From a virus (taxonomy: Duplodnaviria; Heunggongvirae; Uroviricota; Caudoviricetes): a stretch of DNA of 4,539 nucleotides. Location of the stretch: the IMG/VR virus record IMGVR_UViG_2778261274_000003. One strand, written 5' to 3'. A model generated the notes under the pieces. It did no database searches and had not been told where the DNA came from. It worked only from the letters and a program-made list of their open reading frames with translations. Below are positions 947 to 4,539 of this stretch, one piece after another; position 1 is the stretch's first letter; the number at the start of each line of letters is the position of its first letter. Position numbers and translations under genes: made by a program.

Positions 947-1474
947 ATGCAGCATTTAAAAAATATTAAGTCCGGAAATCCAAAAACAAAAGAACAATAT
1001 CAGCTAACAAAGAATTTTGATGTTATCTGGTTATGGTCCGAAGACGGTAAAAACTGGTATGAGGAAGTAAATAACTTTCAGGACGACACCATAAAGATTG
1101 TATACGACGAAAATAATATTATTGTTGCCATAACCAAAGATGCCTCAACGCTTAATCCCGAAGGCTTTAGTGTCGTTGAGATTCCAGATATAACAGCCAA
1201 TCGTCGTGCCGATGATTCAGGGAAGTGGATGTTTAAGGACGGAACTGTGGTTAAGCGGATTTATACAGCAGACGAACAGCAACAACAGGCCGAATCACAA
1301 AAGGTCGCGTTGCTTTCTGAAGCTGAAAGCGTTATTCAGCCACTGGAACGCGCTGTCAGGCTGAATATGGCGACGGATGAGGAACGCACACGACTGGAGT
1401 CATGGGAACGCTACAGCGTTCTGGTCAGCCGTGTGGATACAGCAAATCCCGAATGGCCACAAAAGCCTGAGTAA
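947..1474 (+). CDS. Tail-fibre assembly chaperone (Tfa), 175 aa, P2 gpG / Mu U-like
   Basis: ATG at 947 with AGGTG about 8 nt upstream. The N-terminus [22 protein letters not shown]...DGKNWYEE is the conserved Tfa N-domain. The 175-aa length matches P2 gpG as I recall it. It sits directly after the fibre cassette stop. Confidence 0.85.
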
Positions 1475-1502: not shown

Positions 1503-2036
1503 TCATTCTGGTTGTTCGGGAAACGTTACTGGCAGGCTGGAGGTGTCTGTAGATTCGACTTTCTGCGCAAAGAGCATCCACTCGGTTAATTTCTGCTTAT
1601 TCTCGTCGGAAATGATGCCCAGCCGTAGCTGTGAGTCCCATAGCTGGGTTTTATCCCTGACAAGTTGCAACAGGCTTTGCTTTTCATTTTCCGCTTGTTG
1701 TCTCTGCTCTTCCTCGGTATAAGTTCGCTTTATCACTACGCCATCTTTGAACATCCATTTCCCCGAAATATCAGCCCGGCGATTTGCTGTAATATCAGGT
1801 AATTCAACGACGCTTGCGCCTTCCGGATTAATTGCTGAAACATCCTTTTCAATACAAATAATAACGCCGTTATGGTCATAGACCATTTTCAAAGTGTCTG
1901 GCTGGAAATTCTTTTGTTCCTCATACCAGTTTTTTCCATCATCTGAATAAAGCCATTTGATGTTAAATTGCTTTGTTAGCTGGTATTGCTCTTTTGTTTT
2001 AGGGTTGCCAGCAGTAATGTTTTTTAAGTGCATCAT
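1503..2036 (-). CDS. Tail-fibre assembly chaperone (Tfa), 176-177 aa, cognate to the currently expressed fibre C-terminus
   Basis: ATG-ATG start at 2036/2033 with GGGGAG about 10 nt upstream, 2 nt after the fibre stop. The N-terminus [22 protein letters not shown]...DGKNWYEE is paralogous to the plus-strand Tfa, and the C-terminal third diverges. Confidence 0.85.
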   Translation of the reverse strand: MMHLKNITAGNPKTKEQYQLTKQFNIKWLYSDDGKNWYEEQKNFQPDTLKMVYDHNGVIICIEKDVSAINPEGASVVELPDITANRRADISGKWMFKDGVVIKRTYTEEEQRQQAENEKQSLLQLVRDKTQLWDSQLRLGIISDENKQKLTEWMLFAQKVESTDTSSLPVTFPEQPE

Positions 2037-2038
2037 CG

Positions 2039-3877
2039 TTAAATACTCCCCGCGTTATACCACGTCCCATTAATGCAATACTGAATTGGCCTTGCCTGTG
2101 TTGTATCAATTAATTCATCACGGTTTCCGTTAACTGAACCCGTAACGACATAACCTGACCTGTCAGACCAGCCGGGACCATTCCATGTCTGAACAGATGA
2201 CAGACCGCCAAGGCGAATACCTGTAATAAACCTTGAGTTACATTCTGCCTGCGTATATGCACCAACATCTCCCGCTGAAGGTTTTCGTGTCGTGGTATAG
2301 AAATCTGACCAACCTAATTCAAACCCATAACCATCACGAGCCGACCTGTAGGAAATGCCACCATTTTTATAATTCACACGGAATTGTACGGCAGGACAGC
2401 TACCAGCATTTATATTAAAGTGAAGAATTAATACAGATGCACCACCAATCAGGGCGTTATATGCACCACTATCCCAATTCCATCCAACGGATGTATCACC
2501 ATTAACAGTATTACCTGTTTGTCGGAGTGCAAATGCATTGACATTTTTGGCACTAATTGAAATATCGCTAGAACCATCAAAACCAACTCCAGCAATTTTT
2601 CGTGCTGTTTTCAGCTTTGTTGCAGTAGCGGCATTGCCGGACAGTTCCCCAGAAAGGCCACCGCTGAATGTTTGTCGATTGGTCCAGGTATTCGCTGTAC
2701 TGAGTAACGGTATTTTCTCCCCGCTTGTGCCGAGTTCTCGTAAACCGAGGTATTCGATAACGGCGGCAACGGTCGATTTCGCAAGAATATCCCGCCCGAC
2801 TTTTGTCAGAGTTGCCAGGCTGGCGACATCATTCCCCGTAAAATACGGAAACCTGTCTGCCGCAGTAGCAAGCCCGGCCAGCGCCGTCAGGGTGGCATCT
2901 TTCGGTTGCTTACCCGCAAGCGCGTTAGTCATGGTGGTCGCAAAATTCGGGTCGTTGCCCAGCGCCGCAGCCAGCTCGTTCAGCGTGTTCAGTGCATCAG
3001 GTGACGAATCTACAAGGGCGGCAATCGCAGCCATAACGAAAGCCGTGCTTGCGATTTGGGTATTATTCGTTCCCTGTCGCGCAGTTGGTGTTGTTGGCGT
3101 TCCGGTCAGCGCCGGGCTGTTTAATGGGGCTTTCTTATTTGTTTCATCCATTACTGCCTTAACCGCTTTCGATGTCGCGGCCAGTGTTTCAGACGTGCTG
3201 TTGGTGGCACTACTGAGCTGGACAATCCCTTTTTGTGCCGTCGTGGCGTCCTGAGCGGTATATTTTGCGTTAGCAAGATCATACGCGGCCTTTACCGCTT
3301 TTGGTGTTGCGGCGAGCGTTTCAGAGGTGCTGTTGGTGGCACTACTGAGCTGGACAAGACCTTTTCGCGCTGTAGTGGCGTCCTGTGCGGTATATTTCCC
3401 GTTAGCAAGGTCATAGGCTGCCTTGACCGCTTTCGGCGTTGCGGCCAGTGCTTCAGACGTGCTGTTGGTGGCGCTACTGAGTTGAACAAAGCCTTTTGCG
3501 GTCAGCGAGGCGTCCGGGTGACGTCGTGACTGTTCATGTTCTTTCAGTTTGTCATTCACGTAATCCACTGTGGCCATAACCATGGTGTTATCCACGGTAA
3601 GCGCCACGGTGGCAGTGCTGGATACGGTCAGAATGGTGCGAAATGTTTGTGCACGTCCGGATCCTTCGGCAACGGCTGGCTTGTAACTTTCGGCAGTATT
3701 GCCCACCGCGATCAAATCGCCGTGCTCATCAAATACACCAATTTCCCGGATCCAGAATCCGCCCGTTTCAGGAGGAATAACCAGCTCCGCAATAATGCGG
3801 TTCTGATGTGTTGCGTCCAGGATGACGCGATTAACAGTATGTCGCCACACCTCATGCACCAGACGGGTCTGCTTCAC
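2039..3877 (-). CDS. Tail-fibre protein, 612 aa as currently assembled (constant N-terminal shaft plus invertible C-terminal receptor-binding domain); apparently 5'-truncated
   Basis: Long ORF with a 132-bp tandem repeat region in the shaft. The crossover site is embedded in frame (…AAVIEYLGLRELGTSGEK…). The C-terminal domain contains GELSGNAATATKLKTARK and ends RPIQYCINGTWYNAGSI, typical of lambda Stf / Mu S / P2 H fibres. The start is GTG with no recognisable Shine-Dalgarno, and an in-frame stop lies 5 codons upstream. Confidence 0.85.
   Translation of the reverse strand: MKQTRLVHEVWRHTVNRVILDATHQNRIIAELVIPPETGGFWIREIGVFDEHGDLIAVGNTAESYKPAVAEGSGRAQTFRTILTVSSTATVALTVDNTMVMATVDYVNDKLKEHEQSRRHPDASLTAKGFVQLSSATNSTSEALAATPKAVKAAYDLANGKYTAQDATTARKGLVQLSSATNSTSETLAATPKAVKAAYDLANAKYTAQDATTAQKGIVQLSSATNSTSETLAATSKAVKAVMDETNKKAPLNSPALTGTPTTPTARQGTNNTQIASTAFVMAAIAALVDSSPDALNTLNELAAALGNDPNFATTMTNALAGKQPKDATLTALAGLATAADRFPYFTGNDVASLATLTKVGRDILAKSTVAAVIEYLGLRELGTSGEKIPLLSTANTWTNRQTFSGGLSGELSGNAATATKLKTARKIAGVGFDGSSDISISAKNVNAFALRQTGNTVNGDTSVGWNWDSGAYNALIGGASVLILHFNINAGSCPAVQFRVNYKNGGISYRSARDGYGFELGWSDFYTTTRKPSAGDVGAYTQAECNSRFITGIRLGGLSSVQTWNGPGWSDRSGYVVTGSVNGNRDELIDTTQARPIQYCINGTWYNAGSI
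2736..2761. repeat. 26-bp serine-invertase crossover site (gix/cix/hix-like), right boundary, embedded in the fibre coding sequence
   Basis: Plus strand TTCTCGTAAACC-GA-GGTATTCGATAA; its reverse complement TTATCGAATACC-TC-GGTTTACGAGAA is the inverted partner of 57-82 with the same TC core. It encodes VIEYLGLRE. Coordinates are +/-1 bp because of the frame discrepancy at line boundary 2700/2701. Confidence 0.8.
3152..3496 (-). repeat. In-frame tandem array (about 2.6 copies) of a 132-bp / 44-aa repeat in the fibre shaft
   Basis: Protein repeats KG[FLI]VQLSSATNSTSE[AT]LAATPKAVKAAYDLAN[GA]KYTAQDATTA[RQ]. The DNA block TCAGA(C/G)GTGCTGTTGGTGGC(A/G)CTACTGAG recurs at plus-strand 3189, 3321 and 3453, exactly 132 bp apart. 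Confidence 0.85.
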
Positions 3878-3885
3878 GCAGGGAA

Positions 3886-4206
3886 TCAGTTTTCAGCATG
3901 GCTGTTGTCCTCGTTGTTCAGTCGTTGCAGTCTGCGCTGCTCCAGTAATTCAATGGCCCGTTTATCCGCGTTACAGGTTTCCAGTGCATCCAGAAGGCGG
4001 TCGCCCCATATACCGAGATTTCCCCATGTGGGAGTATCAGGGAAGGGGGGAGGCATTACCGGTATGGTCAGCGTCTGCGGTATAAGCCGGACTGACGGCG
4101 CTGGCCGTGGCGCGTTCTGCGTGCCTGCGCAACCTGTCAGTAAAACGAGCGTCAGGCAAAGCGTGGGCGCATTCATCTTTTGCAATATCGTTGCGTAGCT
4201 GTTCAC
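3886..4206 (-). CDS. o-spanin (Rz1-like outer-membrane lipoprotein), overlapping the i-spanin gene
   Basis: Lipobox L-T-G-C after a hydrophobic stretch (…TLCLTLVLLTGCAG), then a proline-rich segment (APRPAPSVRLIPQTLTIPVMPPPFPDTPT). It starts inside the i-spanin gene in another frame and runs 150 nt past its stop. The GTG at 4206 has GGAGAG upstream; an alternative ATG is at 4176. Confidence 0.65.
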   Translation of the reverse strand: MNSYATILQKMNAPTLCLTLVLLTGCAGTQNAPRPAPSVRLIPQTLTIPVMPPPFPDTPTWGNLGIWGDRLLDALETCNADKRAIELLEQRRLQRLNNEDNSHAEN

Positions 4207-4444
4207 GTCTGGCCTCTCCGTCCTGATTGCGTTGCTGATTTTCCGCGCGGAGTTGTGCCAGCACCTGCTGCATATCCTGTACCCCGGCGCTGATGATATT
4301 CAGGGTGTCGACGGTACTTTTCAGGGTGCTGGCCTGCGCTTCGTTTCTGGCGTTCTCCCGGCCCAGTGACCACGACAGACGCATGGATGCTCCCCAGGCG
4401 GCAATCAGAAGAAAAGCGACGCCCAGCGTGGGCCAGAGCTTCAT
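4037..4444 (-). CDS. i-spanin (Rz-like inner-membrane spanin), about 135 aa
   Basis: Start at ATG 4444 gives an N-terminal transmembrane segment MKLWPTLGVAFLLIAAWGASM followed by charged, coiled-coil-like sequence. The ATG overlaps the upstream gene stop (ATGA), with GGAG about 11 nt upstream. The ORF-track extension to 4513 overlaps the upstream gene frame and reads as non-protein-like. Confidence 0.6.
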   Translation of the reverse strand: MKLWPTLGVAFLLIAAWGASMRLSWSLGRENARNEAQASTLKSTVDTLNIISAGVQDMQQVLAQLRAENQQRNQDGEARREQLRNDIAKDECAHALPDARFTDRLRRHAERATASAVSPAYTADADHTGNASPLP

Positions 4445-4539
4445 GCCGGATAAACTCCGTGCGGTAACTGAAAATGCGGTCCGTCTTTCAGGGTCTTCCA
4501 GTCGCCGCCCCATTCCACCGGAATATTCAGTTCCCGGCT
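4441..4539 (-). CDS. 3' end of the upstream lysis gene, probably an endolysin (partial; continues beyond the right edge)
   Basis: Open frame ending …SRELNIPVEWGGDWKTLKDGPHFQLPHGVYPA* with its TGA overlapping the i-spanin ATG. Its position immediately before the spanin pair is where endolysins sit. The WGGDW…D.PHFQ tail recalls LAS/M15-type peptidase endolysins, but that is from memory only. Confidence 0.4.
   Translation of the reverse strand, partial: SRELNIPVEWGGDWKTLKDGPHFQLPHGVYPA

Follow-up and report, generated by a model that had tools for sequence, protein, structure and literature searches.

The tail-fibre gene in the window (the whole stretch of DNA that was analysed, 4,539 nt of the IMG/VR virus record IMGVR_UViG_2778261274_000003) contains three tandem copies of a 44-amino-acid PF03406 (Phage_fiber_2) unit. 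We consider it probable that this array is an optional spacer module, the copy number of which is altered by in-register recombination, and that the allele in the window is an old and diverged one, which resides in a broken gene. The initial annotation of this DNA had interpreted the array as near-identical repeats, whose gain or loss would change the length of the fibre shaft. This interpretation is partly supported: it holds at the level of the fibre family, but it is overstated for the locus in the window.

A search of the window with TRF detected a single tandem array at positions 3156-3497 (period 132, 2.6 copies, 85% matches, 0% indels, score 495). This agrees well with the 132-bp array that had been placed at 3152-3496. 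An ungapped repeat search gave a matching register, with copies at 3156-3287, 3288-3419 (86%) and 3420-3551 (64%). When 132-nt segments of the window were compared with one another, the highest identity was 86%, at a shift of 132. Outside the array the maximum was 45%, and 20 shuffled sequences gave 42-47%. The 132-nt repeat signal is far above chance. The array is encoded by the minus strand and is in frame with the fibre ORF (2039-3877), 132 nt corresponding to 44 codons.

In the protein register, every unit is composed of a conserved core of 30 amino acids, which carries GxVQLSSATNSTSETLAATPKAVK, and a tail of 14 amino acids. The tails of unit 1 (u1) and unit 2 (u2) are the linker AAYDLANxKYTAQD, and the tail of unit 3 (u3) is a distinct exit tail. 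TRF counts 2.6 copies because the array comprises three cores and two linkers and the tail of the last unit differs. The earlier description as about 2.6 copies of a 44-amino-acid unit was right about the size of the unit; the number of units is three. In the codon register, the identity is 79.5% between u1 and u2, 69.7% between u2 and u3 and 68.2% between u1 and u3. Most of the differences are synonymous changes at third codon positions (13 synonymous and 7 non-synonymous codons between u1 and u2), and the longest exact in-register runs between the units are 14, 31 and 21 nt. The copies are not near-identical in DNA: they share 68-80% identity, and no exact in-register run between them exceeds 31 nt. 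Moreover, about 80% identity and exact runs of 31 nt or less make poor substrates for slippage or RecA, and the idea that the repeats are good substrates for slippage or recombination does not apply to this locus. Three other ORFs lie across the array (3233-3529 and 2538-3254 on the plus strand and 3292-3489 on the minus strand). They have no Pfam match and are unannotated in relatives, and we rejected them as genes.

Table 1. Features of the fibre locus in the window
Feature	Position	Strand	Remarks
Left 26-bp crossover site, TTATTTAAAACCTCGGTTTACAGGAA	57..82	.	
Alternative fibre C-terminal segment	107..943	+	joins constant part after inversion; PF21446
Tail-fibre assembly chaperone, alternative orientation	947..1474	+	PF02413, E = 2.5e-36
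Tail-fibre assembly chaperone, current orientation (gpG / Tfa)	1503..2036	-	PF02413, E = 4.8e-36
5′-truncated P2/P88-type tail-fibre gene	2039..3877	-	612 codons from fortuitous GTG; intact homologues 661 aa
Right 26-bp crossover site of invertible fibre segment	2735..2760	.	end of repeat-bearing constant part
Whole array, three in-frame 44-aa PF03406 (Phage_fiber_2) units	3116..3511	-	aa 123-254 of window ORF; TRF, Pfam, unit parsing
Unit 3 (u3), terminal unit	3116..3247	-	conserved core + distinct exit tail AVMDETNKKAPLNS
Unit 2 (u2), chimeric middle unit	3248..3379	-	head like terminal unit, tail like first unit
Unit 1 (u1), ASLTAKGFVQLSSATNSTSEALAATPKAVK + linker AAYDLANGKYTAQD	3380..3511	-	aa 123-166
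Deletion joint, 4-bp GCTT microhomology	3871..3874	.	fibre codon ~50 fused to start of gpR-like gene

PF03406 (Pf2) is a curated family that was first noted in lambda Stf. In the Pfam search, this family ("Phage tail fibre repeat") matched three stretches of the fibre ORF (E = 9.8e-61, 201.5 bits against a cut-off of 22), and the proposal that the array is a module of the fibre shaft is thus supported. The three units have an exact 44-amino-acid spacing and lie between the N-terminal tail-collar fibre domain PF12571 and the chaperone-dependent C-terminus. The PF12571 match (E = 3.2e-36) covers only positions 47-149 of the 150 positions of the profile. The closest sequences are annotated fibres of E. 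coli prophages, which are 99.9% identical; in the matching strains, the intact gene encodes a 661-amino-acid tail fibre and is located between the baseplate gene I and a recombinase gene. Among sequenced phages, P88 and other members of Xuanwuvirus are the closest to the window. The P88 / Xuanwuvirus (Peduoviridae) fibre and E. coli prophages (O145:H28, UTI89) share 96-99.9% DNA identity with the window, and the P88-type gene order (fibre, two assembly chaperones, alternative C-terminal segment, invertase) is common to both. Furthermore, P88 has three PF03406 units, which are orthologous to those of the window position by position. In contrast to P88, the fibre in the window is without its first 49 codons and is fused to lysis genes by a 3.6-kb deletion.

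The C-terminal part of the fibre is encoded by an invertible segment. The two 26-bp crossover sites, which presumably resemble the gix consensus, are inverted and share 21 of 26 positions. They flank two C-terminal segments and two chaperone genes, and this is the layout of the Gin/Cin/Pin/Hin-type systems (Mu G, P1 C, e14 P). When the segment between 57-82 and 2735-2760 was inverted in silico, the alternative fibre form of 716 amino acids that is present in the database (P0048) was reproduced. A recombinase or DNA invertase gene abuts the equivalent of window position 1 in the related locus L001 and in P88; in the present case it would lie just beyond the window. The repeat array is upstream of the crossover site, within the constant part of the fibre. 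Therefore, a change in the length of the array would affect both alternative receptor-binding ends.

Compared with the intact prophage, 3571 bp are absent, namely R, S, V, W, J, I and the 5′ end of H (the first 49 codons). Positions 3875-4539 of the window consist of lysC, lysB and the start of a gpR-like gene, which are not next to the fibre gene in intact prophages, and the reading frame that begins at the gpR′ start differs from that of the fibre. A complete fibre gene with its own start beside the baseplate genes I and J is not found in the window. Because of the 3571-bp deletion, the array now belongs to what is left of a defective prophage, and because the fibre gene is 5′-truncated in this deleted prophage, a change of length here would have no direct phenotype. 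The deletion joint was absent from 5,426 complete E. coli genomes and from the GTDB species representatives (the latter by exact search). An exact look-up of the truncated 612-amino-acid product found no record. For the genome from which the window derives, the defectiveness of the prophage is more informative than the repeat.

We compared the number of units among related fibres. One shared copy number is excluded by this comparison, because 0, 1, 2, 3, 4, 5, 6 and 7 units were found, in steps of exactly 44 amino acids. For example, the fibre locus of strain YC21-F17 is 97.5% identical overall, is exactly 132 bp shorter and has 2 units. The 120 nearest protein clusters, all in the 44-amino-acid phase, comprise 77 clusters with 3 units, 32 with 4, eight with 6, two with 2 and one with 5. 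Roughly 430 complete E. coli genomes contain both flanks; when these were sampled with a query consisting only of the flanks, 3 units were found in 13 loci, 2 in four and 1 in one. In 80 IMG/VR loci, 2 units were the most frequent (45 loci), followed by 3 (21), 4 (8) and 1 (4), with single loci having 5 and 7 units; every spacing was 44 amino acids. The count is three in P88-type phages and two in Citrobacter phage Shae_phiSM. An allele with six units is present at unchanged length in at least 16 complete genomes among the matches listed, and in other records, which the six-unit query matches from end to end, the count is 4, 3 or 2. Some of the high-copy alleles are from short-read drafts; the 4- and 6-unit alleles were confirmed in complete genomes. 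At the other extreme, fibres from Escherichia sp., Yersinia aleksiciae and Pantoea stewartii possess a full PF12571 domain and 0 PF03406 units. The HMM built from the three units of the window is narrow, and the count of 0 units in distant genomes was rechecked with Pfam on three proteins. Because PF12571 fibres with 0 units exist, the module is optional. Between the 2-, 3- and 4-unit alleles, the N-terminal and receptor-binding parts are 98-99% identical. Thus, the change in length spares the binding domain, and the prediction that the shaft would be altered in steps of 44 residues with the receptor-binding domain untouched is in line with these alleles.

P2 gpH has two units, and the initial annotation was correct in that P2 H has fewer copies. 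The canonical P2 gpH (AF063097, 669 amino acids) shares with the window the PF12571 N-terminal domain, the repeat and a conserved region downstream, and the flanks have about 78% DNA identity. Units 1 and 2 of P2 correspond to units 1 and 3 of the window. Another P2 record (NC_070904) has 1 unit; its flanks are about 97% identical to those of AF063097, and the two records differ by exactly 132 bp. In the annotated P2 stretch examined, no invertible segment was seen, and H is directly followed by G.

The expanded and the chimeric alleles suggest how the copy number changes. In four expanded alleles (L005, L006, L007 and L008), adjacent internal units are 97-100% identical in DNA, and L008, which is from a complete chromosome, contains an exact in-register run of 191 nt. 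This identity between neighbours indicates recent tandem duplications. In the window, u1 shares 88.6% identity with P2 unit 1. The middle unit, u2, is chimeric, with a head that shares 92.2% identity with that of P2 unit 2 and a tail that shares 88.1% identity with that of P2 unit 1. Unequal crossing-over within an array of two units would be expected to give such a unit. The P2 allele with a single unit is of the reciprocal type, having the head of a first unit and the tail of a terminal unit. The joints of both the chimeric u2 and the one-unit P2 allele fall in the conserved core.

We propose the following explanation. The array consists of three tandem Pf2 copies in the proximal, constant part of a P2/P88-type fibre (gpH), placed between the domain for attachment to the baseplate and the invertible segment that supplies two alternative receptor-binding ends. 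The 44-residue module may act as an optional spacer of a presumably trimeric shaft, related fibres probably being functional with any number of copies from 0 to 7. Unequal homologous recombination in register, or misalignment during replication, within the conserved core would add or remove exactly 132 bp, and this would alter both alternative fibres while leaving the receptor-binding domain intact. The allele in the window would be an old product of such an event, which has since diverged to about 80% identity and is now probably fairly stable; at most, the array may serve as a recombination reservoir for incoming phages. Recombination or misalignment as the probable cause agrees with the published instability of tandem repeats in E. 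coli. The proposed role as a spacer of a trimeric shaft comes from knowledge of the family. An AlphaFold2 monomer model of amino acids 106-296 was unusable (pLDDT 38.8, pTM 0.22).

Similar units are found in other phages. Lambda Stf, K-12 StfR and the collagen-like EPclB of EHEC prophages contain, as does the window, a tandem PF03406 motif of roughly 40 amino acids (PMC3368898). In lambda-Stf-like proteins, the copy number is variable (up to 12 units). However, proteins of the lambda Stf type differ from the fibre in the window in that they have the N-terminal anchor PF08400 and are siphovirus side fibres. Their units often alternate with a 59-amino-acid unit to form super-repeats of 103 amino acids (11-12 units). 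In the fibre S of Mu (gp49; PDB 5yvq / 8ju3 / 9ki1), the motif occurs once, at residues ~99-154. The Mu fibre, like that in the window, is divided into a constant and an invertible, variable part, but its N-terminal attachment differs. In the portions of the Mu fibre papers and PDB entries examined, the fold of the repeat motif is not described. A paper published in 2012 stated that the structure and function of Pf2 were little known (PMC3368898). Our search of the literature on P2 gene H repeats, PF03406, shaft copy number and the structure of the Mu fibre found descriptions of Pfam/Pf2, but neither a study of copy-number variation nor an account of the fold.

This wide distribution raises the possibility that the repeat is a patch of homology, through which unrelated phages (P2-like, lambda-like, Mu and P1) swap fibre modules, and that the variation in copy number is a by-product of the swapping. 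An exhaustive profile search found a PF03406-type unit in 4,548 protein clusters (50% identity), and these have differing N-terminal anchors and C-terminal ends; the best-scoring 150 carry 2-21 units per protein. At the DNA level, the repeat and the region downstream of it have 70-80% matches to stf of lambda-like phages, P1 and Gifsy-2. Moreover, the 2-unit allele of YC21-F17 is of another allele type within surroundings that are otherwise 97.5% identical. As several of the alleles that differ in copy number differ in the sequence of their units too, some of the differences in copy number may be due to replacement of alleles between phages rather than to local, intramolecular slippage. In one publication (PMC3945230), defective prophages are reported as donors for temperate phages. 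However, identical adjacent units inside one allele are more simply explained by local duplication. We regard the exchange of modules as a possible, although not a probable, account of the variation; it is not exclusive with the in-register recombination proposed above.

A more doubtful idea is that the number of units is an adaptive setting of the reach of the fibre, the length being selected to match the depth of the O-antigen or capsule of the host. In this case, repeated unequal crossovers would lengthen or shorten P2-like fibres, the setting would be common to both invertible ends, and decayed prophage copies such as that in the window would donate alternative lengths. This idea is compatible with the data because identical binding domains are found with 0-7 units, and recent duplications have occurred repeatedly.

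Next, we considered whether the array is an old, fixed structural repeat, the units of which are ancient, are under purifying selection at the level of the protein and undergo no meaningful change in copy number at present. The allele in the window taken by itself has this appearance. The identity among its units is only 68-80%, most of the differences being synonymous, and each unit is nearer to the unit at the same position in P88 (u1, 87.9%; u2, 89%; u3, 93.9%) than to its neighbours. All but one of the 30 nearest E. coli loci are of equal length, and the exception, YC21-F17, bears a different allele type. Furthermore, among the closest relatives no other number of units is as frequent as 3. 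From the unit-for-unit match to P88 and the constant length in 29 of 30 loci, the three-unit allele is old and stable, and it is probably not changing in length at present. However, relatives with 97-99% identical flanks have 1, 2, 4, 5 or 6 units, and the 97-100% identical neighbours and the 191-nt exact run in the expanded alleles must be recent. Thus, a fixed repeat suits the allele in the window on a short timescale and is refuted for the family by the alleles with 4-6 units. As a general explanation it is improbable.

It is very improbable that the array is a programmed, high-frequency contingency locus, which would switch the fibre phenotype within a population in the manner of simple sequence repeats: the tandem arrangement and the position beside a genuine programmed switch (the invertible segment) are the only features that suit such a locus, whereas a unit of 44 codons makes frame switching impossible, identical units are not found (68-80% identity, exact runs of no more than 31 nt), the length hardly varies among the nearest 30 loci and the fibre gene in the window is truncated. 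Finally, several of the 5- and 6-unit proteins are encoded on short draft contigs whose ends lie within the fibre gene, and the differences in copy number might be artefacts of assembly, in which repeats were collapsed or expanded in short-read drafts; this is hardly credible, because 1, 2, 3, 4 and 6 units occur in complete chromosomes or finished phage genomes (AF063097, P88, OZ038821 and at least 16 genomes with six units) and collapse lowers counts and never raises them. We rejected such artefacts for 1-4 and 6 units on the basis of the complete genomes; 5 and 7 units are single, provisional cases.

The repeat family is already known, and dozens of E. coli genomes carry an annotation of this exact fibre sequence. 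Because the unit belongs to a curated Pfam family within a well-known and already annotated family of fibres, the importance of the array is small. A study that relates fibre length to adsorption by means of a series of units was not found in the literature searched and may not exist. The P2-like fibres described here, which have 0-7 units of identical phase on the same receptor-binding domain and include recent duplications, form a natural series. This series could be used to ask whether the length of the fibre affects adsorption, and it could guide the engineering of P2/P4 delivery particles.

Two genome records are both named phage P2 (NC_070904 and AF063097). When their gene H sequences, which encode the homologous tail fibre, were compared, they differed by exactly one repeat unit, and past about nt 1440 the receptor-binding halves were unrelated.

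In the fibres of Escherichia sp., Yersinia aleksiciae and Pantoea stewartii (loci L092, L109 and L115), which are anchored by the N-terminal collar domain PF12571, no PF03406 units were found. In place of PF03406, the downstream module SPxLTGTPxAPT...TAFV...LDTLxELAxALxxDPxF is duplicated in these fibres. This duplicated module is a second shaft repeat, distinct from PF03406. The profile search with the 44-aa unit also gave four representative proteins with other N-terminal anchors (P0121-P0124). In these proteins, copies of the 44-aa unit take turns with copies of a 59-aa unit (..AAGKAPSSHTHPWNQITGVPT..), which gives super-repeats of 103 aa; there are up to 11-12 units, with almost no difference in protein sequence between them.

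Features of the window outside the repeat array
Feature	Position (nt)	Strand	Remark
Inverted crossover sites, 26-bp	57-82 and 2735-2760		Bound the invertible segment 83-2734
Stretch encoding DSSPDALNTLNELAAALGNDPNFATT	~2934-3022	-	DNA match to mycobacteriophage minor-tail genes
Deletion joint	3871-3874		4-bp GCTT microhomology
Overlapping lysis-gene pair	3886-4206 and 4037-4513	both -	Rz1-like LysC (PF23793) and LysB-like (DUF2570)

The DSSPDALNTLNELAAALGNDPNFATT stretch, downstream of the repeat array, shares 78-86% DNA identity with minor-tail genes of about 240 mycobacteriophages and also matches PDB 9d93, a solved chain described as "tail collar fibers gp4". DSSPDALNTLNELAAALGNDPNFATT is thus a fibre motif with a strikingly wide spread among very distant hosts.

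Within the invertible segment lie two chaperone genes in convergent orientation and a pair of alternative C-terminal segments for the fibre; inverting this segment in silico regenerated the 716-aa fibre form found in the database. In relatives, the invertase gene sits just past the position equivalent to window position 1. The segment also contains a 357-nt inverted repeat with 70% complementarity (947-1303 and 1680-2036), which is merely the paralogous chaperone genes in facing orientation.

At the deletion joint, 3571 bp have been deleted, and the start of a gpR-like gene is now fused to about codon 50 of the fibre gene. The prophage in the window has lost R, S, V, W, J and I, its genes for tail completion and the baseplate, and is therefore defective. 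The joint turned up in neither the 5,426 complete E. coli genomes nor the GTDB representatives searched. The lysC and lysB genes lie beside this fusion, within 3875-4539, a stretch that also includes the start of the gpR-like gene: one encodes an Rz1-like LysC lipoprotein and the other a LysB-like protein, and the two reading frames share 4037-4206, read in different frames.
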